Source: Bacteroidales bacterium (GTDB taxonomy: Bacteria; Bacteroidota; Bacteroidia; Bacteroidales; VadinHA17). Taken from it: a stretch of DNA of 64,000 nt. This document shows, in pieces, positions 4,657 to 64,000 of the stretch. Positions within the stretch are counted from its first letter, which is position 1. The number at the start of each line of letters is the position of its first letter. A program made the translations under genes and the position numbers. The stretch is taken from positions 72,165 through 136,164 of the forward strand of contig JAIVHO010000038.1 in assembly GCA_020201035.1 (NCBI GenBank), read 5' to 3'. The notes under the pieces were generated by a model. The model ran no database searches. It was not told the DNA's origin and was given only the letters and a program-made list of their open reading frames with translations.

Positions 4657-5799
4657 TTACTCAAGTGTGAGGTAATAATCGTTCAGAAGTCCGCTGAGCA
4701 AAGGCTTGTAATAGAGCCAGAAAAAACGTCTCGGATCATTTACCTCATCGCTGTAGAGCAGGCTTGACAAAAATCCCGGTTGCCCGAAACAGGCTGTCCA
4801 GGGTGCCATCTTGCCGGTAGCAAAATCACCGGCCATATAGATATAGTTACCCTCTCCCAGATTTCCTGATACAGCAGGAAAAACATTACTAAGAAAGTGC
4901 CTGTCCAGCAATTCCAGTCCCTCCGGAGTTGTCTCCAGCGAAAATGAGGATAAAACACTGTTCTCTTTGGCATCAATAATATCAAACGGTCCTCTGAAGG
5001 CCACCTTCTCGGGAACGCCATATTTCAGGGCAATATCACTGCTGGTTGTCACGTAGGGTATGGCTGATACCAGATGCGTTTCCTCCTCAAGAATAATAAC
5101 GTCATTCTCTCCTTTAAGAAGGACGATACCCGCATTTGTAAATGACCAGGGCGTCCGGTTTTTTTTCAGGTAGAGAACCGGCAGCCACTCAGGGACATCC
5201 AGTGAATCAAGTGATGGATAGTATTCACCTGACCAGCCTGTACTCTGCATGCCGAATTGCTCCTCCACCTTATACCTCTCATATGCATCTGTAGGGTATC
5301 CAAAGGAGTTATGTTCAAGAATTACAAGCTTGTTTAATTTTCTCATCTCGGCAAGAAGGAGGTAATCATTGTTATTCAGGCCTCCATAAAGCATTCTGGA
5401 TCTCCTGCTCCTGTTTATCCCTTCATACCAGTCATTGAAAAATACCCCATAGGTGTCAGCATAGTAAAGCATATCATTATTAGCCACAATCTCAGGAAGA
5501 TCTGACAGTCTGAAATCATTTCTCCTGAACTGCTTTGAACGTAAGGGCTTTATGGGAAAGAAACCATAATAATCTTTTCTTAGCAGGTACTTCCTGTTAC
5601 TATCCTTTACGAACCTGCCATTTGCAAGGACCCAGTTAAGTGCCCTGTGATGGTTCCTCTCTAATGAATGAACTGTCTTGTCAAGAATAACTATATTCAT
5701 CTGTTTCTTCTCCTTAAGAAACCATCCGGTAAAAGCTATTGCCGGCAGTATAAGGAGAATAACAAGAATAACAACTGTAAACAGGAGAGGTTTTTTCAT
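4657..5799 (-). CDS. hypothetical protein with N-terminal membrane anchor
   Basis: 380-aa ORF with one N-terminal hydrophobic helix (LLFTVVILVILLILPAIAFTGWF). I recognise no motif. The coding call rests on length, lack of overlap and its own terminator. Confidence 0.6.
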   Translation of the reverse strand: MKKPLLFTVVILVILLILPAIAFTGWFLKEKKQMNIVILDKTVHSLERNHHRALNWVLANGRFVKDSNRKYLLRKDYYGFFPIKPLRSKQFRRNDFRLSDLPEIVANNDMLYYADTYGVFFNDWYEGINRSRRSRMLYGGLNNNDYLLLAEMRKLNKLVILEHNSFGYPTDAYERYKVEEQFGMQSTGWSGEYYPSLDSLDVPEWLPVLYLKKNRTPWSFTNAGIVLLKGENDVIILEEETHLVSAIPYVTTSSDIALKYGVPEKVAFRGPFDIIDAKENSVLSSFSLETTPEGLELLDRHFLSNVFPAVSGNLGEGNYIYMAGDFATGKMAPWTACFGQPGFLSSLLYSDEVNDPRRFFWLYYKPLLSGLLNDYYLTLE

Positions 5800-13582: not shown

Positions 13583-13672
13583 CTGAACTCATTAATACTA
13601 CACACAAAAGATTGAAACAGATATGAAGATATTTAATCTTCTACTGCACGTCAGAGGATAATTAAATTTTTC

Positions 13673-13752
13673 ATGCGGGAGTGAAGAGGTTACATTCCTT
13701 ATCGTATATTTAATAATCTAATTGTCAAATAATTAAAAAATTTAAACGTATG
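13673..13752 (+). repeat. diverged third copy of the 140-bp intergenic element, ending on the ATG of the 13750 gene
   Basis: It aligns to 53620-53700 with one 1-nt gap at roughly three-quarters identity by eye. Shared blocks include ATGCGrGAGyGAAGmGGTTmCATTC and AAAATTTmAAACGTATGAAA. Confidence 0.6.
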
Positions 13753-14454
13753 AAAAGAATCATTTTAACACTAACGGTAGCCCTGATAATACCTGCCCTT
13801 GTTTGCGGACAGGATCTGAATGAGGTAATAAAAAAGTACTCTGACGCATCAGGTCTGGCAAAATTGTCAGGTTACAACTCCCTTGTGGTTGAGGGCAATG
13901 TAAACCAGATGGGAATGTCAATGGATATGAGGCTGATGGAAAAGAAGCCAGGCAAGCTCAAGATGGTAACTACTTTCAGCGGAATGGATATTGTTCAGGT
14001 TATAAACGGAAACACAGGTTATACCATTAATCCAATGATGGGATCAACCGAACCCGTTGAACTGCCTGCCGACCAGCTTGCACAGGCCGAAAGCAGTTCA
14101 ATGCTTTCCAATAATATCGAAAAGCTTCTGAAAGAAGGCAGCCTTGAGCTTACAGGGAAAAGTAATTTCGGGGATGAATCAGCATACGAGGTAAAGGCAT
14201 TAACAGATGCCGGTACGGTTTTCTTTTACATATCAGACAAAACCCATCAGCTGATAGGTTCAAAAACAACAGTATCCCAGATGGGGCAACAGTTTGATGT
14301 TGAAACAAGAATGAAAGAGATAAAGGATTTTGAAGGTGTCATGCTGCCGTCTGTGTCAGAAACCTATGTCAACGGTGCGCTGAGTGCCACCATTACCTTT
14401 AACTCAATAAAATTTAATGTTCCGATCCCCGATTCGGAATTTGAGAAAAAATAA
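13750..14454 (+). CDS. secreted LolA-like / outer-membrane lipoprotein-sorting family protein
   Basis: 234 aa with a signal peptide (LTVALIIPALVCGQD). The length and beta-rich pattern resemble LolA-like proteins of Bacteroidota. The assignment is from memory of the family, not from a search. Confidence 0.5.
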   Translation: MKRIILTLTVALIIPALVCGQDLNEVIKKYSDASGLAKLSGYNSLVVEGNVNQMGMSMDMRLMEKKPGKLKMVTTFSGMDIVQVINGNTGYTINPMMGSTEPVELPADQLAQAESSSMLSNNIEKLLKEGSLELTGKSNFGDESAYEVKALTDAGTVFFYISDKTHQLIGSKTTVSQMGQQFDVETRMKEIKDFEGVMLPSVSETYVNGALSATITFNSIKFNVPIPDSEFEKK

Positions 14455-14822
14455 GCAGCAAACCTGTAAGCCGGATTCTGTACCCTGTCCTGCAGCCTTC
14501 ACGAGGCTTTGGACAGGGTTTCTGCCATCTGTCTTGGACCTCCGTCACCGAAGGCCTCTAACGACCTACCCCCCGGCTCGGACGAGCAATCCTCAGTCAC
14601 CGGTATACATGGTCTTTCAACCCATGAAGTGTACGGCTTATGATGTCACCACCATAACCGGTGGGCTCTTACCCCACCTTTTCACCCTTATCCCGACTTG
14701 TCGGGACGGTTATTTTCTGTTACACTGAAATACCCTTGCGGATATCTTCCCGTTAGGAAGCATGGTGCTCTGTGTTGGCCGGACTTTCCTCCGCTTTAAA
14801 CGGCGGCAGAACGGTTTGCTGC
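14455..14822 (-). ncRNA. rnpB: RNase P RNA, bacterial type A
   Basis: The minus strand reads GCAGCAAACC...GGAGGAAAGTCCGGCC...AAGGGTGAAAAGGTGGGGTAAGAGCCCACC...ACAGAATCCGGCTTACAGGTTTGCTGC. This carries the universally conserved P4 strands (GAGGAAAGUCCGG / ACAGAAxCCGGCUUA) and the terminal P1 pairing GCAGCAAACC/GGTTTGCTGC. Length is about 368 nt. End positions are accurate to within a few nt. Confidence 0.9.
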
Positions 14823-48769: not shown

Positions 48770-48806
48770 AAGAAGAGGAGTTGCAGTGCAACTCCTCTTC
48801 TTTTAT
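48770..48806. terminator. bidirectional rho-independent terminator shared by rplI (+) and ridA (-)
   Basis: A near-perfect 15-bp palindrome, AGAAGAGGAGTTGCA / TGCAACTCCTCTTCT, is flanked by an A-rich tract on the left and a T-rich tract on the right. It abuts the ridA stop at 48803-48805. Confidence 0.75.
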
Positions 48807-49180
48807 TTTGCTGCAATGGTTTCAATCTCGATCATTGCTCCCAGTGGTAGGCCCTTAACCGCAAAGGCAGCCCTGGCAGGAGGGTCTTTCTGGTAGAATG
48901 ATCCGTAAACCCTGTTCATCTCTGCGAAATTATCCATATCAGTAAGCAGGCAGGTTGATTTTACAACATCAGCAAACGTGTATCCGGCAGCCAGCAAAAC
49001 AGCTTCAATATTTTTCATTACCTGCATTGTCTGTTCAGCAATATCACCCTGCACAATTATGCCTGTCTCAGGATCAATTGGAATCTGACCGGCAATATAG
49101 AGGGTGCCGTTTATCTCTGCGGCCTGACTATAGGGCCCTACAGCGGCAGGAGCCTTTTCTGTGTTTATTATTCGTTTCAT
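48803..49180 (-). CDS. ridA: RidA family reactive-intermediate (enamine/imine) deaminase
   Basis: 125 aa with the typical YjgF/RidA pattern: KAPAAVGPYSQA...GQIPIDP...VKSTCLLTDM...ARAAFAVKGLPLGAMIEIE. Confidence 0.9.
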   Translation of the reverse strand: MKRIINTEKAPAAVGPYSQAAEINGTLYIAGQIPIDPETGIIVQGDIAEQTMQVMKNIEAVLLAAGYTFADVVKSTCLLTDMDNFAEMNRVYGSFYQKDPPARAAFAVKGLPLGAMIEIETIAAK

Positions 49181-49317
49181 ACGTTTAAAATTTTGTAATT
49201 ATATAACAATAAGTTAATTAAAAATTTGAGAACGAATGTAACCGTTTCGCTCTCGCATAATCTTTTTTAAACATATTCTTTTGTGATATTTATGCTTAAA
49301 AACCATCATGCTCGTTT
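49178..49317 (-). repeat. 140-bp intergenic element, copy A (ends on the ridA ATG)
   Basis: The reverse complement aligns gap-free to 53561-53700 with 12 mismatches in 140 (manual count). It contains the hairpin GAGAGCGAA/TTCGTTCTC at 49228-49254. Confidence 0.9.
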
Positions 49318-49406
49318 CATACGTTTATTTATTTATGATTACTTTCTATTTATTGGCAGACGGCGACAGATCCTGAATTCGATCATCCGAAGGGCCACTG
49401 AGATGG

Positions 49407-52361
49407 CTACCTCTGGTTGTCATGAAAATCCTTTCGCCTCTCATATTTCAAGTCCTGAAGCACACTCGCCTTGACCCTTATTGTAAAGTTCCATTGCTGC
49501 AGGTAACCAATAGGAACCCAGTTAAAACTCATATCCCAGCAGTGCAGGTCACGGGTGATACCGATATTACTCATGGTAATCTTCTTCTGAGTGAGATCAT
49601 AACCTGTCTGGTAGGTGATGGCAAGATTATCTGTAAGCTTCAGATCACCATTTATTGAAAATTGCTGCTGTATCGTTGATTCATCCCTCGGTTTGGAATA
49701 GAAGAAGGTATAGGAGAAGCGCAGCGACCAGGGTGCATCGAAAAGGGCATATCCGTATTTATCAAACATACTGTTATCTGAAGCAGCTGCTGGCCCCTCC
49801 TCACGTCCCGGGATACCCTCCATGGCTCCTCCATTTTCACCGGGTCCTGCCTCCTGCAACGCTCCGGTGTCCGGTGGCCGGTTTCCTGTATTACCCGTAA
49901 GGTTATCTATTATTCTTCCCAGGTCAAATCCCACACTTACATTAAACGATGTGAGTCGGGCCGGAACCCTGTTCACACTCCATGAGGAGCGATTGATCCT
50001 TCTGAACAGAGAGTCCTGGGCATATGGATCGAACGATCCGTTTGCAGATATATCAATCTCCTTCATCAGGCGGGTACGCATTGTCATCCTGACAGGAGAC
50101 CAGCCCAGTGAATCGGCAAAAATATTATAAGATGTATTAAACCCGAGGTTATCAATGATTTTGACCTTTTCACCCTGACCGGTAGTGTCATTACGGCTTC
50201 TGACTTTTGCTTCTATAATATTGGTGAGTGAAAAACTGAGGTTTCCGCTGCGGTTCGAGAGTGATGGGGTACCGTAAATATTACCGCTATAGATTGAATA
50301 CTCCTGCATAGTGCCAAGAGTATCTGTCTGGACGCTACGGTACATATCCGATGAGAGCCCCTCTATCGCAGGCACCATCGAAAAGCTTACGGAGGGTTTA
50401 ACTACATGACGAATAGCAATAATCCGTGACTGCGGTCTTGTAAAACTGTACATACCAAAAATCTGGGGCGAATAGGATGCTGATATCTGAGGGTTTATAG
50501 CCTGCCCGTAGAAGAGTCCGGAGAGCTGATTCTCCACTACCCTGCTTATTGTATCATTGGTCAGAGGGTCATAAAACTCTTCAACCCACTCCCTTTCGAT
50601 CTTTCTGGTATACATTACACCAGAATAACGTACCTGCGGCGAGATTGTAAAGTTATTGAAGGGGCGTATGGGTATTGAGACGGGAATCTCATGTTTGAAT
50701 CCGTTGTCCATATTGTTCCAAACCTCATTTGTAAAGAGCAGGGAATCAGTAGTATTGATCCTGTTATCCAGGCTTGCTGTGTATTGCAGCTGCAGCTCCT
50801 GCCACCATTTTGTTGATCCTCCGCTTTTGGGTTTCAGCGGGTAGAGTCTGCTTGCACTGAATGTCATCTTCGGAAGATTAACCGTAACAGACTTGTTTGC
50901 GGTATTCTGGCTGTGATTAAAACTGGCTGCGAAATTGAACGGGGTTCCTGCCCAGGTCTTTGAGTAACTGATGCTGGAACTTTTGGTTGTGGTAACATGT
51001 TCATTAACGGTATAACTGTTCTCCCTGTCAAAACCACTCGAGCTCATATTTACGCTTGCCGAGAGTCTTGATCCTGGTCTGGCCTTGGCATCCTGAGAAT
51101 GACTCCACCTTATTGAATAGTTAGGATTCCTTGAATAGTTCTCCAGACCCTTGTAGCCTGTGACATTACTGGCATAGGTAAATCCAAAGTTGCCACTGAA
51201 TTTATAACGCTTCCTGTAGTTTGTGGCGATAGCCGAACGCCATGATCCGTTGGTATAGATATCACCTGTAAGCCTGAGATCAAAATAATCACTTATGGCA
51301 AAGTAGTATCCACCCTCTTTCAGGAAGAACCCGCGGTTACGCTCCTCACCGTATTTTGGCATTACAATTCCTGATGCCACCTTCTGCTGTACGGGAAAAA
51401 AGCCAAACGGCAATATCAGCGGCAGAGGGATATCCTCAAGCACAAGATATGCAGGGCCGGATATTATCTTCTCACCGGGGATCACTTTTGCCTTGTTAAG
51501 ACTGACATAGAAATGGGGATGCTCTGCATCACATGTGGTGTATTTGCTCCCTCCTGCATGAAGGGAACCGTCATTGTGCATCTTTGTTATGCCGCTGTGA
51601 AGATAGCCACCCTCCTGCTCTGTCCTTATATTTTTAATAATGGCCTGTCGGGTCTTGAAGTTATATACCAGTTCACGCGACTCAAACTCCTGGCTCCCCT
51701 CCCTGAAGACAGGCGTGTCAACCCAGTTGCCGGCTGAATCCTGCCTGCCCCTTGCAAAGACCTCACCTGTTGCAAGGTCAATATCCATATAATAGGCATT
51801 CAGAAATATATCACCATATGTAGCTGTAGCATTGTTAACAAGATAAACCTTCTGTGTGGCCAGATCGCTGTGGATAGTATCAGTTGCATTGTATACTATT
51901 GGAATGTCAATGGCATCATCAGAAAGAAGCAAAGTACCTGTTGTAAGGGTGTCCTGACTCAGCAGGGTGTCCTGACTCAGCAGGGTGTCCCTCCCATGGA
52001 TATCCTGCAGTAGCAGGGAATCCCTTCTCAGTGTGTCCTGTAGAAAAACAGCATCATATGTTATCAGTTCATTAGACTGCGGAATAAGAGCCGGTTTATC
52101 AACGGGCAAAAAGGCCTTTAGCAAAAATGGAGCATCGGTAGCAGGCAGAGTTTTACGATGCGGGTAATTAAACAACTCTTTATCCCCACCTGATACTTCT
52201 AACCCGTAATTTATCAAATCTGCATCACGGGCCGGTACGATTGTTGATAAAAAGAGAAATATGATTAAAAGATCTGTTTTGTATGCTAATTTATAATGCA
52301 ACTTAATACTATTTTTGTACTGTTTCCGTACCGTATAAAAAGATCGGATAAAACTAATCAA
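49407..52361 (-). CDS. large outer-membrane protein, LptD-like (Bacteroidota-type putative LPS assembly protein)
   Basis: 984 aa with an N-terminal hydrophobic signal-like region, an OstA-like segment and a long beta-rich region with aromatic-terminated strands. Synteny with an amidase and an MlaD-like gene is common in Bacteroidota, from memory. The start is uncertain; an in-frame TTG about 25 codons downstream is possible. Confidence 0.65.
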   Translation of the reverse strand: MISFIRSFYTVRKQYKNSIKLHYKLAYKTDLLIIFLFLSTIVPARDADLINYGLEVSGGDKELFNYPHRKTLPATDAPFLLKAFLPVDKPALIPQSNELITYDAVFLQDTLRRDSLLLQDIHGRDTLLSQDTLLSQDTLTTGTLLLSDDAIDIPIVYNATDTIHSDLATQKVYLVNNATATYGDIFLNAYYMDIDLATGEVFARGRQDSAGNWVDTPVFREGSQEFESRELVYNFKTRQAIIKNIRTEQEGGYLHSGITKMHNDGSLHAGGSKYTTCDAEHPHFYVSLNKAKVIPGEKIISGPAYLVLEDIPLPLILPFGFFPVQQKVASGIVMPKYGEERNRGFFLKEGGYYFAISDYFDLRLTGDIYTNGSWRSAIATNYRKRYKFSGNFGFTYASNVTGYKGLENYSRNPNYSIRWSHSQDAKARPGSRLSASVNMSSSGFDRENSYTVNEHVTTTKSSSISYSKTWAGTPFNFAASFNHSQNTANKSVTVNLPKMTFSASRLYPLKPKSGGSTKWWQELQLQYTASLDNRINTTDSLLFTNEVWNNMDNGFKHEIPVSIPIRPFNNFTISPQVRYSGVMYTRKIEREWVEEFYDPLTNDTISRVVENQLSGLFYGQAINPQISASYSPQIFGMYSFTRPQSRIIAIRHVVKPSVSFSMVPAIEGLSSDMYRSVQTDTLGTMQEYSIYSGNIYGTPSLSNRSGNLSFSLTNIIEAKVRSRNDTTGQGEKVKIIDNLGFNTSYNIFADSLGWSPVRMTMRTRLMKEIDISANGSFDPYAQDSLFRRINRSSWSVNRVPARLTSFNVSVGFDLGRIIDNLTGNTGNRPPDTGALQEAGPGENGGAMEGIPGREEGPAAASDNSMFDKYGYALFDAPWSLRFSYTFFYSKPRDESTIQQQFSINGDLKLTDNLAITYQTGYDLTQKKITMSNIGITRDLHCWDMSFNWVPIGYLQQWNFTIRVKASVLQDLKYERRKDFHDNQR

Positions 52362-52377
52362 AAATCATGATCATTGC

Positions 52378-53517
52378 ATGAAGAGCAGGATCAAAAATAA
52401 CAAAGAGTATGCCATTCGTGCCCTTATAATAAAGGCTGGAGTTGCGCTGCTGCTTTTTATTGCTCCATTTCTGATTGCTACGGCACAGGATGGGAATGGC
52501 AGCAATGGTGACGGCTGGGTTGTTGTAATTGATCCGGGACATGGTGGGAAAGATCCCGGAACAGTTGGCCGCCGCAGCAGGGAAAAGGATATTGTGCTGG
52601 CAATTGCCCTAAAAACGGGAAACTATATTGAGGAGCTGTTACCCGGTGTAAAGGTTATATATACCCGTAAAACCGATGTTTTCATTGAACTCGACAAAAG
52701 AGCAGATATTGCAAACAAGGCAAAGGCTGATCTTTTTATCTCAATACATGTTAATGCCATATCAGACAGTAGGATAAGGGGGAGTGAGACATTTGCAATG
52801 GGCCTGCATAAAAATGAAGGAAACCTGCAGGTGGCAATGAAGGAAAACTCAGTAATCACACTCGAAAAAGATTATACGACAAAATATCAGGGGTATGACC
52901 CCAACTCCTCTGAGTCTTATATTGCCTTTTCCCTTATGCAGAATATCTATCTGGAGCAGAGTCTCTATTTTGCATCCTTTATCCAGAACCAGTTCAGAGA
53001 AAGAGTTGGGCTGCGCGACAGGGGAGTTAAGCAGGCAGGATTCGTAGTACTTTCTATGACTACCATGCCCAGTGTCCTGGTTGAAGCGGGATTTTCATCA
53101 AACTCTGAGGAAGAGAGGCTGCTGTTGTCGGAACAGGGACAGGATTATATTGCATCTGCAATCTTCCGGGCTTTCAGGGATTATAAGGACGCAGTAGATA
53201 AAAAGAGCGGATTTACGCCGCTAAGAGATGATTTTGGTTTAGCTGACCAGTCACAGATAGACTTCAGGGTTCAGATAGCCACTTCTTCAACCAGGCAGGA
53301 ATTGAAATCAGAAAATTTCGGATCCCTAAGGGAGCTGAGTGAGCTGGTTTCCGGAAAATATTATAAATATGCCAGCGGACATTTTAAGACATACCCGGAA
53401 GCATCAGACTACAGGCGATCAATCTTATCACAATTTCCAGACGCATTTGTTATAGCTGTCAGAAACAGTGAAATAATGCCACTACAGGAGGCCATTGAAG
53501 AGACCGGAAGCAGATAA
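52378..53517 (+). CDS. N-acetylmuramoyl-L-alanine amidase (Amidase_3) with C-terminal SPOR-like domain
   Basis: VVIDPGHGGKDPG, SIHVNA and ETFAMG are Amidase_3 zinc-site contexts. The C-terminal roughly 90 aa (FRVQIATSS...YKYASGHFKTYPEASDYRRSI) resembles SPOR. Confidence 0.88.
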   Translation: MKSRIKNNKEYAIRALIIKAGVALLLFIAPFLIATAQDGNGSNGDGWVVVIDPGHGGKDPGTVGRRSREKDIVLAIALKTGNYIEELLPGVKVIYTRKTDVFIELDKRADIANKAKADLFISIHVNAISDSRIRGSETFAMGLHKNEGNLQVAMKENSVITLEKDYTTKYQGYDPNSSESYIAFSLMQNIYLEQSLYFASFIQNQFRERVGLRDRGVKQAGFVVLSMTTMPSVLVEAGFSSNSEEERLLLSEQGQDYIASAIFRAFRDYKDAVDKKSGFTPLRDDFGLADQSQIDFRVQIATSSTRQELKSENFGSLRELSELVSGKYYKYASGHFKTYPEASDYRRSILSQFPDAFVIAVRNSEIMPLQEAIEETGSR

Positions 53518-53560
53518 CACATAACTGTACCAATCTCTAAAACATAAAAATATAATAATA

Positions 53561-53700
53561 AAACGAACATGATATTTTTTAAGCTTAAATATCACAAAAG
53601 AATATGTTTAAAAAATATTATGCGAGAGCGAAGCGGTTCCATTCGTTCTCAAATTTTTAATTAACTTCTTGTCAGGTAATTACAAAATTTCAAACGTATG
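53561..53700 (+). repeat. 140-bp intergenic element, copy B (ends on the ATG of the MlaD-like gene)
   Basis: See copy A. The hairpin is at 53624-53650 (9-bp stem including one G-U pair, 9-nt loop). Confidence 0.9.
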
Positions 53701-54648
53701 AAAAAAATATCCCCGGAAGTCAAAACAGGTGTAATTGCCATTTTAACAATAGCGGCCTTCATATGGCTTTACAGTTTCCTGAAAGGTCATAACCTGTTCA
53801 GCAGAACAGACAGCTACACTGTTATATATGAAAACATTGCCGGACTGGAAGGATCGAGTCCGGTAGAGATAAATGGCTTTAAAGCCGGAGTGGTCAATAA
53901 CGTAAAACTTATGAATGACGGTTCCGGAAGAATAGCTGTTGGCTTCAGTATACTGAAAGACTTCCGGATACCGGAAGGGTCAGTTGCAGAAATTACCACT
54001 GCAACCCTGATTGCCGGTATGAAGATAAGAATGGTAATGGCAGACAACAGCACCGGATACTACCAAAGGGGAGATACAATCCCGGGCAGGGTTGCTGTTT
54101 CCATTCTGGACAAGGCGGAGCAGCAGTTTGAGCCGGTAATGATGAAGGTAGACTCACTTTTATACCATCTGTCGATTGCAATGGAGAGAATTAACTCCAT
54201 CATGACGGAAGAATTTGCATCTGACCTCGCCGAAACAAACAGCAACATTGCTTCAGCAACAGGGTCACTTGAAGTGATGCTCGCAGGTACAGAGGAGTCC
54301 TTTCCCTCTCTTATTGAGGGAATAGACCGATTCACGGCAATGCTCAATAACAACAGCAACAATATAGACGAAACTATCAGCAACCTGAAATCAATCAGTG
54401 ACACCATTGCCGCTGCCGATATTTACGGTGCAGTAATCAATCTCAGAAATAATCTTGATCAGACAAACAGTTTGCTTACGAAAATTAATAATGGCGAAGG
54501 AAGTGCAGGGATGGTATTTAATGATGACTCCCTTTACCTAAATCTTTCAGCAAGCCTTGAAAGCCTGAACAGTTTGCTTAACGACCTCCGGGAGAACCCC
54601 GGAAATTATGTCCACTTTTCACTTTTCGGCCGAAAAACAGAGAAGTAA
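53698..54648 (+). CDS. MlaD/MCE-domain protein
   Basis: 316 aa with an N-terminal TM helix, then the MCE domain (YTVIYENIAGLEGSSPVEINGFKAGVVNNVKL) and a coiled-coil-like C-terminus. Confidence 0.8.
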   Translation: MKKISPEVKTGVIAILTIAAFIWLYSFLKGHNLFSRTDSYTVIYENIAGLEGSSPVEINGFKAGVVNNVKLMNDGSGRIAVGFSILKDFRIPEGSVAEITTATLIAGMKIRMVMADNSTGYYQRGDTIPGRVAVSILDKAEQQFEPVMMKVDSLLYHLSIAMERINSIMTEEFASDLAETNSNIASATGSLEVMLAGTEESFPSLIEGIDRFTAMLNNNSNNIDETISNLKSISDTIAAADIYGAVINLRNNLDQTNSLLTKINNGEGSAGMVFNDDSLYLNLSASLESLNSLLNDLRENPGNYVHFSLFGRKTEK

Positions 54649-54900: not shown

Positions 54901-56331
54901 ATGAATAAGACTCATCATGAAGTATGGAATAACTGTCTCAACATCATCCGGGACATTATTCCATCTATCAGTTTTAAGACCTGGTTTGAGCCCATTATAC
55001 CTTTAAAACTGCACAATAACATCCTTACCATTCAGGTTCCCAGCCCTTTCTTTTATGAATACCTGGAAGAGCAGTATATAGATATATTAAGGAAGACCAT
55101 CAGGCGTGAACTGGGAAATGATGCAAAGCTTGAATACAATGTTGTAATGGAAAATACTCAGTTCAGTGACGGGAAACCATATACTGTAAAATATCCTTCA
55201 CGCAACAAGGCTGAACTGACAAATATGCCAGTCTCAGTACCCTATGAGGCAGCACAGTCTTCAATAAAAAATCCGTTCGTTATTCCGGGCATTAAAAAGG
55301 TTCACTTTGATCCGCGGCTCAATCCCGATTACTCTTTCCAGAACTATATAGAGGGTGATTGTAACCGTCTGGCACGTTCGGCAGGAATAGCCGTTGGAAA
55401 CAACCCCGGGGGTACAGCCTTCAATCCGCTGATGATCTATGGTGACTCAGGACTGGGGAAGACGCACCTTGCCCAGGCGATAGGTATCCAGGTAAAAGAA
55501 CAGCTCCCTGACAAGATCGTCCTTTATGTTAATGCAAATAAATTCCAGACCCAGTTCGTTGAGTCAATCCGCAACAACAACCGTAATGATTTCCTTCACT
55601 TCTACCAGATGATTGATGTGCTTATACTGGATGATGTACAGGAGTTTGCAGGCAAGGAGAAGACCCAGGACACCTTCTTCCACATATTCAACCATCTTCA
55701 CCAGAGCGGAAAACAGCTGATACTCACCTGCGACAGGCCACCCGTTGAACTTCAGGGCATGGAACAAAGGCTTCTTTCCAGATTTAAATGGGGACTGCTG
55801 GCAGATCTCCAGAAGCCAGACTACGAAACCCGACTGGCAATTCTGAAAAAGAAGGCCTACAATGATGGTATTGAGCTCGATGAGGATATTTTCGAGTACC
55901 TGGCAACAAATGTTACAAACAACATCAGAGAGCTGGAGGCTGTACTCATCTCACTCTATGCACAGTCAACACTTAACAGAAAAGAGATAACTCTCGAGCT
56001 TGCAAGGCAGATGATTGACAAGCTTGTTAAGCATACTGCCAGAGAGATAACCATTGACTATATACAGAAAATTGTATGCGAATATTACCGCATACCTGTT
56101 GACCTGATGCAGAGTAAAACCAGAAAGAGGGAGATTGTGCAGGCCAGACAGGTTTCAATGTTCTTCAGTAAAAACCTCACCAAGTCATCACTTGCCAGTA
56201 TAGGATCTCAGATAGGTGGCAAGGATCACGCTACGGTGCTTCACGCCTGCAAGACAGTCAATAATCTTATTGATACTGACAAGCATTTCAGGCACCAGAT
56301 AGCTGAAATTGAAAAAAAGATAAAAGTATAG
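54901..56331 (+). CDS. dnaA: chromosomal replication initiator protein
   Basis: 476 aa with AAA+ motifs (GDSGLGKTHL, LILDDVQ), box VII, and the C-terminal DNA-binding domain (RKREIVQARQVSMFFSKNLT...IGGKDHATVLHACK). Confidence 0.95.
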   Translation: MNKTHHEVWNNCLNIIRDIIPSISFKTWFEPIIPLKLHNNILTIQVPSPFFYEYLEEQYIDILRKTIRRELGNDAKLEYNVVMENTQFSDGKPYTVKYPSRNKAELTNMPVSVPYEAAQSSIKNPFVIPGIKKVHFDPRLNPDYSFQNYIEGDCNRLARSAGIAVGNNPGGTAFNPLMIYGDSGLGKTHLAQAIGIQVKEQLPDKIVLYVNANKFQTQFVESIRNNNRNDFLHFYQMIDVLILDDVQEFAGKEKTQDTFFHIFNHLHQSGKQLILTCDRPPVELQGMEQRLLSRFKWGLLADLQKPDYETRLAILKKKAYNDGIELDEDIFEYLATNVTNNIRELEAVLISLYAQSTLNRKEITLELARQMIDKLVKHTAREITIDYIQKIVCEYYRIPVDLMQSKTRKREIVQARQVSMFFSKNLTKSSLASIGSQIGGKDHATVLHACKTVNNLIDTDKHFRHQIAEIEKKIKV

Positions 56332-62739: not shown

Positions 62740-62940
62740 CATATTATTAAACACACTTGCTATCCTGTTCTGATAGCATAGTTTTGTTTAAATTGCCGGT
62801 AATCATGAAGGGAAGTTTATATTTCGGCTGAGTGGTTGAGGATTGCAATTCAATAATTTTAAATGAAACGAGCATGAATATACTTATCACCTGTTTGCTG
62901 CTGATGTTTCATCAGACCTGAAACCATAAATTATATACAG

Positions 62941-64000
62941 ATGAAGAAATCACTACTATTTGGCGCTGTAATTGGCCTGATTATGTCATCCTTTCAATCA
63001 CCTGCACAGACAGTGGATATGGATCTCTTTCATGGCATGCAACCCCGGAATGTGGGTCCGGCCGGAATGAGCGGCAGGGTTACTGCCATTGCGGTTGAAC
63101 CGGTAAACACCGAAGTATTTTATATCGGTACAGCATCAGGAGGACTATGGAAAACCACCTCGGGGGGCATTCAGTTTGAGCCCGTCTTTGATAAAGAGGC
63201 AGTTGCTTCAATAGGGGCGCTTGCCATCGACCCATTACGCCCTGATGTTGTCTGGGCCGGTACAGGAGAAGGTAATCCCAGAAACAGCCTTACAGGCGGA
63301 TACGGAATCTACCGGTCACCGGATGGCGGACTTTCATGGGAGTTGAAAGGTCTGGAGGAGACAAGGCATATCCACAGGATACTTGTTAACCCCGTTAACA
63401 GTGATATTGTATTTGCAGGAGCAATAGGATCACCCTGGGCACCCAACAGCGAAAGGGGTGTTTTCAAGACATCCGATGGCGGAAAAACCTGGAAGCAGGT
63501 GCTCTATACAAATGAGAGATCAGGGGTGGCAGATATGGTAATGGATCCATCAAACCCGGATAAGATTCTCGTAGCCATGTGGGATCACCAGAGATGGCCA
63601 TGGTTCTTCACATCAGGCAGTGAGGGTTCAGGAATCTACATGTCGCTTGACGGTGGTGAAACTTTTTCCAGACTGGAAAAGGGACTGCCGGAGAAGATAG
63701 GCAGGGTTGGGCTGGCAATTGCAGCAGGAAGACCTGACTACATTTATGCATATGTTGAATCGGAAAACAATGCTATCTACCGCTCAACGGACGGAGGGTT
63801 CACCTGGGAGAAGCGTGGAACAGAGAGAATTGGAACAAGACCATTCTATTATGCTGAGATACACGTTGATCCATCCAATGAGAACAGGTTATTCACTCTT
63901 TTTTCAGGAATCAATATGAGCGAAGATGGTGGCCTCACATTCCCCTACTCCATCGCCCAGACCGTTCACCTTGATCATCATGCATGGTGGATGAACCCGA
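62941..64000 (+). CDS. BNR/sortilin-Vps10-like repeat protein (secreted), N-terminal part; continues past the right edge
   Basis: Not in the ORF track because there is no stop in the window. I translated 62941 to 64000 by hand without hitting a stop. It has a signal peptide (MKKSLLFGAVIGLIMSSFQSPAQT) and repeated S-x-D-x-G-x-T-W blocks (SPDGGLSWE, TSDGGKTWK, SLDGGETF, STDGGFTWE, SEDGGLTF). Confidence 0.8.
   Translation, partial: MKKSLLFGAVIGLIMSSFQSPAQTVDMDLFHGMQPRNVGPAGMSGRVTAIAVEPVNTEVFYIGTASGGLWKTTSGGIQFEPVFDKEAVASIGALAIDPLRPDVVWAGTGEGNPRNSLTGGYGIYRSPDGGLSWELKGLEETRHIHRILVNPVNSDIVFAGAIGSPWAPNSERGVFKTSDGGKTWKQVLYTNERSGVADMVMDPSNPDKILVAMWDHQRWPWFFTSGSEGSGIYMSLDGGETFSRLEKGLPEKIGRVGLAIAAGRPDYIYAYVESENNAIYRSTDGGFTWEKRGTERIGTRPFYYAEIHVDPSNENRLFTLFSGINMSEDGGLTFPYSIAQTVHLDHHAWWMNP

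Follow-up and report, generated by a model that had tools for sequence, protein, structure and literature searches.

The 64,000-nt stretch of Bacteroidales DNA analyzed here (contig JAIVHO010000038.1, positions 72,165 to 136,164; called the window below) contains two long sequences in inverted orientation, each of which leads into the start codon of a gene. We present evidence that these are probably mobile elements that are specific for a short target sequence and replace the start codon of the gene at which they insert. Four genes make up the locus. On the minus strand a gene of the LptD_2 family (49407..52361) is the upstream cistron of ridA (Ribonuc_L-PSP family; 48803..49180), and on the plus strand the gene for an N-acetylmuramoyl-L-alanine amidase (Amidase_3; 52378..53517) is the upstream cistron of a gene of the MlaD family (53698..54648). 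One repeat lies within each of these pairs.

The original prediction for this locus reported that the reverse complement of 49178-49317 matches 53561-53700 at 128 of 140 positions, and ungapped alignment gives exactly this result. A repeat finder stretches the pair to 49169-49330 and 53548-53709 (162 nt, with 143/162 or 88% identical), and BLASTN with one copy as query against the window returns E = 1.5e-56, far beyond chance. The unit proper is found at 49175-49320 on the minus strand (copy A) and 53558-53703 on the plus strand (copy B), with 133/146 identities. Each copy had been said to end on the ATG of the gene that faces outward. This is correct, and the shared terminal sequence is the hexamer ATGAAA, which forms the start of both ridA (ATG at 49180, minus strand) and the MlaD gene (53698, plus strand). 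The copies had also been placed directly downstream of the inner genes; that holds for copy B, which begins 40 nt past the amidase stop codon, but is only approximate for copy A, which begins 86 nt past that of LptD_2.

The window holds four units of what is a dispersed repeat superfamily, two of them absent from the original prediction. Copies A, B and C are full-length members of family 1 (nhmmer E = 2e-41, 2.7e-42 and 7.8e-37 respectively), and unit D belongs to a short family. Copy C is a diverged unit at 13612..13755 on the plus strand, identified by the profile and by alignment. It lies in front of a LolA-like gene (13750-14454, plus strand) downstream of kdsA. Its terminal ATGAAA (13750-13755) is the start of that gene, just as the terminal hexamers of copy A (49180-49175) and copy B (53698-53703) are the starts of theirs. 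At the 5′ edge each has a second hexamer, which is ATGAAA in A (49320-49315), ATAAAA in B (53558-53563) and TTGAAA in C (13612-13617). Unit D (62863..62946, plus strand; ATGAAACGAG ... TTTCATCAGACC ... ACAG ATGAAG) is located on the start of a sortilin/BNR-like gene, with ATGAAG at 62941. This gene runs past the end of the window.

The family extends well beyond this organism. When one genome per species was scanned with a 25-nt pattern taken from the central hairpin, 65 further loci came up, spread over Marinilabilia, Marinilabiliaceae, Salinivirgaceae and other Bacteroidales genomes and metagenome-assembled genomes. These include 31 in Marinilabilia salmonicolor MSL42, five in strain JCM 21150 and two in M. 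rubra. An nhmmer profile made from the three full-length window copies gave 69 units in the 65 loci, nearly all of them full length at 144-147 nt. Scanning metagenomes with a left-end pattern added 37 loci, and a scan of viral contigs for the unit gave no matches. Homology runs from ATGAAACGAG to ...TTACAAAATTTTAAACGA ATGAAA (AAACGA ATGAAA); the flanking sequences beyond are unrelated. Copies A and B are 134/146 and 136/146 identical (92-93%) to the Marinilabilia family-1 consensus, yet KdsA and other orthologous proteins of the window organism and M. salmonicolor are only 52-62% identical. This disparity points to recent or horizontal spread of the unit.

The units fall into three length classes of ~145 nt (family 1), ~100 nt (family 2) and ~70 nt (family 3). 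Families 2 and 3 open with ATGAAACGAG, and close with TTCCATC(A/C)GACC, then an AT-rich stretch and then ATAC(T/G)G ATGAAA. In Marinilabilia a family-1 unit is often preceded by units of the two shorter families, so that arrays of two to four units from related families are found, and every junction within them consists of one ATGAAA. Some copies (loci L003, L014 and L038 of our collection) exhibit module exchange or nesting. We also observed head-to-tail dimers of family 1 that share a single ATGAAA (L006 5177-5461 and L107 4963-5247). The junction of such a dimer is that of a circular excision product, and would therefore confound PCR tests for circles.

Evidence for insertion comes from sister genomes. 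We fetched syntenic loci via the MlaD and LolA-like proteins (82-92% protein identity), and for all three full-length copies there are empty sites in sister genomes with 86-92% protein identity. Every empty junction has one intact ATGAA(A/G) exactly at the insertion point; this is seen in L066-L070 for site B, in L070 for site A, and in L072, L073 and L075 for site C. In the following sequences the inserted unit is enclosed in brackets. Empty site B reads ...AAAATA ATGAAA AAAATATCC in L070 and ...CAGAATG ATGAAA AAAATATCT in L066-L069, and the filled site in the window is ...TAATA ATAAAA [CGAAC...AAACGT ATGAAA] AAAATATCC. For site C, ...TTCACAA ATGAAA AGAATC in L075 compares with ...AAAAGA TTGAAA [CAGAT...AAACGT ATGAAA] AGAATC in the window. 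For site A, ...CCAATTT ATGAAG AGAATT in L070 compares with ATGAAA [CGAGC...ATGAAA] CGAATA. Filled and empty sites therefore differ by ~140 nt that separate exactly the Met-Lys codons of the host gene from its third codon, without changing the protein. In copies B and C the ATG of the old host-derived hexamer at the 5′ edge is gone, although the empty sites of relatives have ATGAAA there; family-wide, variation of this hexamer is concentrated in its first three bases. Copy A retains the hexamer, which opens a four-codon open reading frame (ORF; MKRA-stop). All three full-length copies postdate the split from these relatives, whose intergenic DNA has already become hard to align. The suggestion of recent copying in the original prediction thus stands. 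Copies A and B are young insertions from a dispersed family, absent from the orthologous sites of sister genomes.

Our interpretation is that the two arms of the inverted repeat are independent, recent insertions of a small, non-autonomous and strictly oriented element. It would integrate immediately 3′ of the hexamer ATGAA(A/G). As the last six bases of the element are its own ATGAAA, the host ORF would keep a start codon and an unchanged protein, and the old start codon would be left at the 5′ edge of the element, where in family 1 it would either open the four-codon mini-ORF or decay. The occupied targets would mostly be Met-Lys starts because insertion at an internal ATGAAA would break a gene. 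Every unit would regenerate the target, so that later insertions could build tandem arrays. The inverted geometry would be incidental, arising because ridA and mlaD point in opposite directions.

Two sequences of such similarity lying inverted and 4.2 kb apart could alternatively have arisen when one intergenic region was locally duplicated or underwent gene conversion with the other, or might delimit a programmed invertible segment. Copying, gene conversion and inversion were all raised by the original prediction. However, units 92-93% identical occur in other genera and two more lie in the window, and gene conversion between the loci is not needed to explain the pair. We found no sign of inversion of 49318-53560. 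Relatives in which the repeats are missing have lptD (minus strand) and amidase (plus strand) arranged in the same way, as does a second assembly of this species (L113, 99.945% identical over 9074 nt); these are comparisons of assemblies, and a rare inversion would be visible only in reads. Nor is there a recombinase gene adjacent. Explanations of this kind are highly improbable.

Site A may have received more than one insertion, judging by its sequence. Just upstream of copy A there is a remnant of ~25 nt (49321..49345, minus strand) that resembles the 3′ tail of an older unit, detected by the repeat finder and by reading the sequence. This remnant accounts for a 16-nt direct repeat (TCGTTTCATACGTTTA, found at 49172-49187 and again at 49312-49327) and for the inverted repeat being longer than 146 nt. 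Moreover, L066-L069 bear a different unit at this site, with ~65% identity, in the form ATGAAG [CGAAC...ACGG ATGAAA] AGAATA. Its 5′ hexamer ATGAAG is the host hexamer of L070. The L066 site is the informative case, for here the 5′ hexamer would be that of the host and the 3′ hexamer that of the element. We regard this as slight evidence against a true target duplication, noting that the difference between the hexamers may also stem from later mutation. Unit D looks older than copies A, B and C, because only its 3′ part is retained, as a decayed remnant, at the corresponding place in L066-L068.

The hexamers bear on the possibility that the units are classical MITEs (miniature inverted-repeat transposable elements), moved by a DDE transposase with a highly specific 6-bp target that becomes duplicated. 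The presence of ATGAAA at both ends fits this, and the units share with MITEs their small size, multiple copies, lack of a transposase, and filled and empty sites in relatives. But they have no terminal inverted repeats. The ends ATGAAACGAG... and ...AAACGAATGAAA are not complementary, and the only hairpins are internal. The units also have a strict orientation relative to an asymmetric target, and at site A of L066 the two hexamers differ. We therefore consider this origin very unlikely.

The association with gene starts is a general property of the family, as the census of copy number and context in other genomes demonstrates. In 61 of 98 evaluable copies the terminal ATG is the start of an ORF that is 80 amino acids or longer and whose product begins MK. 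Another unit is abutted by 11, a gene start lies within 150 nt of 8, and none of these applies to 18. In the window the hexamer ATGAAA occurs 55 times, of which 39 are intragenic, 12 intergenic and four at called gene starts. One of the 12 is the 5′ hexamer of copy A itself, leaving ~11. Units occupy three of the four gene starts, none of the ~11 intergenic sites and none of the 39 intragenic sites. The remaining start belongs to the gene at 4657-5799 (minus strand), the one called gene of the window that begins with ATGAAA but lacks a unit, and is a natural unoccupied target for comparison.

A theme of cell-envelope function had been noted among the genes at the locus. RidA is not an envelope protein, and across the family the host genes are functionally diverse, with a hydrophobic, signal-like N-terminus in 23 of 40. 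A Met-Lys start is typical of signal peptides, so that a target of ATG-AAA is biased toward genes encoding them. The envelope theme is most simply a by-product of the target.

The unit folds into three hairpins. In copy B (coordinates on the plus strand) stem-loop 1 at 53568..53622 has a 17-bp stem (CATGATATTTTTTAAGC / GTTTAAAAAATATTATG), six pairs of which have compensatory changes across 64 copies. Stem-loop 2 at 53624..53650 (GAGAGCGAA / TTCGTTCTC) is the hairpin of the original prediction; its 9-bp arms are indeed the same in copies A and B, with two mismatches in the loop. Stem-loop 3 at 53651..53690 (AAATTTTTAATTA / TAATTACAAAATTT) is followed by an unpaired tail and then ATGAAA. The minimum free energy (MFE) for folding copy B is −31.3 kcal/mol as RNA (z = −4.4) and −19 kcal/mol as DNA (z = −3.0). 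We observed that the loop of stem-loop 1 can itself be interrupted. In two family-1 units it contains a conventional MITE with terminal inverted repeats (CAATAGTCNGTTA...TAACTAACTATTG; L108 2105-2480, and L038 ~1760-1870 on the minus strand), and in L003 a small GC hairpin (GTCCCGATTATTCGGGA, like the family-3 hairpin) is found at this place.

A short sequence that is complementary to the start lies in the center of the unit. In copy B it is TTCCAT (53637..53642, plus strand), complementary to ATGRAA, and this 'anti-start' box is conserved throughout the three families. Copy A has TTACAT (49241-49236, minus strand), and unit D has TTTCAT, the perfect complement of ATGAAA. The three bases that follow the box complement the three bases that precede the terminal ATG, and do so across families. 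Four Watson-Crick combinations occur (TCG/CGA, CAG/CTG, CCG/CGG and TAG/CTA), together with a wobble version. Pairing of the box and its three following bases with the ATG and its three preceding bases is complete in 71 of 99 distinct right ends, compared with 39 on average and at most 52 in 2000 shuffles. The MFE folds of the family consensus sequences include this helix (CAT-NNN / N′N′N′-ATG). They also include a helix in the left domain, in which AAC at the 5′ hexamer pairs with GTT of the box across CGAG...CGAG. Since both helices share the box, the central GTTCCAT is complementary to both copies of the target hexamer.

In RNA the inserted unit would be read as part of the mRNA and could mask the start codon. 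The start is predicted to be sequestered in the Marinilabilia consensus; across 62 copies the AUG has a median probability of 0.135 of being unpaired. The window copies differ at position −1 (13749, 49181 and 53697). All three family-1 copies there have AAACGT ATG, whereas all copies from other genomes have AAACG(A/G) ATG. An unpaired AUG is predicted with a probability of 0.84 in copy A and 0.57 in copy B, and these values fall to 0.26 and 0.36 respectively when the T is reverted. In these calculations, then, the T weakens or breaks the start-masking helix. It could derive from a lineage-specific master copy or from selection for expression.

Such structure might suggest a conserved cis-regulatory module, comprising a terminator, promoter and 5′ leader, that is held by selection at the two loci, and this had been offered in the original prediction. 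The units are always sense-oriented before a gene and strongly structured, and the start sequestration predicted in other genomes makes exaptation as a leader possible. Yet the units are not conserved at these sites in related genomes, despite 86-92% protein identity, and they precede well over 60 unrelated genes. Of the two properties that were to distinguish a leader from a generic repeat, conservation in related genomes is thus lacking; the other, a preference in gene context, is clearly present, and the units are not context-free repeats. By motif evidence only, there is no sigma-70-like or Bacteroidetes-type (TAnnTTTG) promoter on the sense strand of the units, and no intrinsic terminator. 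Sites A, B and C correspond in the relatives to gaps of 31-57 nt between the cistrons of apparent operons, where a promoter is not needed. Because of this organization the unit is most likely transcribed as intercistronic RNA and does not itself drive transcription, as far as can be read from the sequence. A selected module is quite unlikely.

Other readings of the unit as RNA were examined. Searching Rfam at gathering and permissive thresholds gave no family that matches the repeat, there being only chance-level matches around copy A. The one match at gathering score is the bacterial RNase P class A RNA at 14451-14822 (minus strand, 249.7 bits), which abuts the stop codon of the LolA-like gene that hosts copy C. 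A leader peptide was rejected. An ORF of 30-31 amino acids in copies A and B is not present in copy C, and all the differences between A and B are non-synonymous. A hammerhead-like reading of CTGATG and GAAAC was also rejected on inspection, since the motifs are on opposite strands.

We turn to how the element might move. A trans-acting HUH/Y1 enzyme, similar to those of the insertion sequences IS200/IS605 or to the transposases (RAYT) associated with repetitive extragenic palindromes (REP), might mobilize it on single-stranded DNA, with the GTTCCAT box recognizing ATGAAA at both the cleavage and target sites by base pairing. We advance this mechanism tentatively, as possible rather than probable. 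By analogy the anatomy of the unit best matches the logic of IS200/IS605. Those elements have no terminal inverted repeats, hairpins at both ends and a fixed orientation, and insert 3′ of a short sequence that stays on the left (PMC5027513, PMC5934647); insertion places the left end 3′ to a defined tetra- or pentanucleotide, and the target is read by base pairing (PMC5027513). Like IS200/IS605 and the palindrome-associated transposable elements (PATEs), the units insert directly after ATGAA(A/G) in one orientation and contain an internal sequence complementary to the target. Their hairpins are subterminal, with stem-loop 1 starting 4 nt from the left boundary and the hairpin domain on the 3′ side extending to the terminal ATGAAA or close to it. 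Unlike IS200/IS605 and PATEs, the units carry the target hexamer at the right end as well.

A folded recombination site resembling integron attC is the main rival to an HUH mechanism. Here a tyrosine recombinase would move the units as cassettes by recombination within the shared core ATGAAA (cf. GTTRRRY). In favor of this, the core is identical on both borders of the unit, the inverse core GTTCCAT pairs with it in an imperfect hairpin with covariation, and the units stack into arrays of one orientation. However, the cores ATGAAA(C) and GTTCCAT do not match the R′/R″ consensus of attC (RYYYAAC/GTTRRRY), and the insertion sites are dispersed in the genome where cassettes would join a single attI. 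No integrase is seen next to any array, and the units carry no cassette ORF. We judge this alternative unlikely.

We looked for enzymes that might mobilize the unit. In a tblastn search with an IS200 TnpA query, the only outcome was two Y1_Tnp (RAYT-like) genes in element-bearing genomes, at L018 1469-1924 (PF01797, E = 2e-24) and, as a homologue, at L064 349-792. HUH Y1 enzymes and REP systems thus coexist with the start-codon units, and these genes are candidates at most. The surrounding RAYT/REP regions are L018 1000-2460 (M. salmonicolor MSL42) and L064 1-1130. The units resemble REPs and bacterial interspersed mosaic elements in being hairpin repeats of genomes that encode Y1_Tnp, here the two element-bearing genomes. 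But a REP is a single GC-rich hairpin of 20-40 nt flanking the RAYT gene, whereas the units are rich in AT, span 70-147 nt and contain multiple hairpins. Searches for an autonomous copy, by partial nhmmer matches, by regular expressions for distant left and right ends and by a left-end scan of metagenomes, led only to truncations, chimeras, hosts of the MITE with terminal inverted repeats and, in L034, a chance match inside a histidine-kinase gene.

Several observations weigh against our interpretation. No copy bearing a transposase (TnpA or TnpB) between the ends of the unit was found in ~1 Mb of fetched loci. The Y1_Tnp genes of L018 and L064 are embedded in GC-rich REP hairpin arrays of their own (GGGCTTTCAGCCC; GGTCCCGGAGGGACC), and not in this element. 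The target is a hexamer and not the tetra- or pentanucleotide that is typical of IS200/IS605, and on our reading the 4 nt beside the feet of the hairpins depart from the IS608 guide rule. With local GC skew as a proxy for a bias of the top strand toward the lagging-strand template, the units divide 41:18 compared with 136:76 for ORFs, which is inseparable from gene orientation. A 6-bp target-site duplication is indistinguishable from a target followed by the element's own terminal hexamer, and only site A of L066 leans toward the latter. Lastly, the mean column identity of 91% across 64 copies is inflated, as the copies were gathered by exact-pattern scans.

Repeats that carry start codons, as in Neisseria (REP2) and Borrelia, have been known for decades, and their spread has gone unexplained. 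A literature search for bacterial repeats that target start codons gave no direct match besides these two. REP2 is 120-150 bp long, lacks terminal inverted repeats, has two stem-loops and supplies an ATG fused to downstream ORFs; it is described with a promoter and ribosome-binding site, and its mechanism of spread is stated to be unknown (Delihas 2011, PMC3184786). Borrelia IR-A/IR-B are reviewed alongside it (Delihas 2011, PMC3184786). By analogy we consider REP2, and Borrelia IR-A/IR-B, to be the closest functional counterparts of the present units. REP2 is similar in size, presence in tens of copies, absence of terminal inverted repeats, internal stem-loops, and position immediately 5′ of ORFs with its ATG as the gene start. 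It differs in phylum and has no known sequence relation, and the units here have no promoter motif that we could find (by motif evidence only). The documented ATGAAA target, filled and empty sites, tandem arrays and covarying box-start helix are likewise points of difference.

MITEs such as the Correia repeat enclosed elements (Correia/CREE) and Nezha, and the pneumococcal BOX elements, are also small, non-autonomous, multicopy and modular, with stable folds and filled and empty sites, and affect neighboring genes (PMC3184786). Those MITEs, in contrast to the units, have terminal inverted repeats and short, unspecific target duplications, and BOX has no defined target. The homing of any of these elements (Correia/CREE, Nezha or BOX) to start codons has not been reported to our knowledge.

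With respect to the wider neighborhood, dnaA (54901-56331, plus strand) lies immediately downstream of mlaD, so the inverted repeats adjoin the dnaA region. The cumulative GC skew flattens at ~46-58 kb, with no clear switch of sign within the window.

The family has practical consequences. Its units alter the 5′ regions of numerous genes, and in annotation give rise to spurious small ORFs and miscalled starts. Being long, near-identical repeats in inverted or direct orientation, they can be confused with regulatory modules or inversion switches and can break assemblies. The clean filled and empty sites, the 6-nt Met-Lys target, the arrays and the covarying helix together make the mechanism directly testable. 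The units might even constitute an undescribed class of 'start-codon-homing' single-strand elements, in which GTTCCAT would by base pairing direct both cleavage and integration at ATGAAA on DNA, and mask the AUG on mRNA. Dozens of unrelated genes in a genome would then share one portable translational control, from which the T at position −1 in the window copies would be an escape. We consider this larger scheme doubtful at present. But if the pairing of box and start does work in RNA, the units would provide a natural, portable cassette for control of translation in organisms in which initiation is not led by a Shine-Dalgarno sequence.

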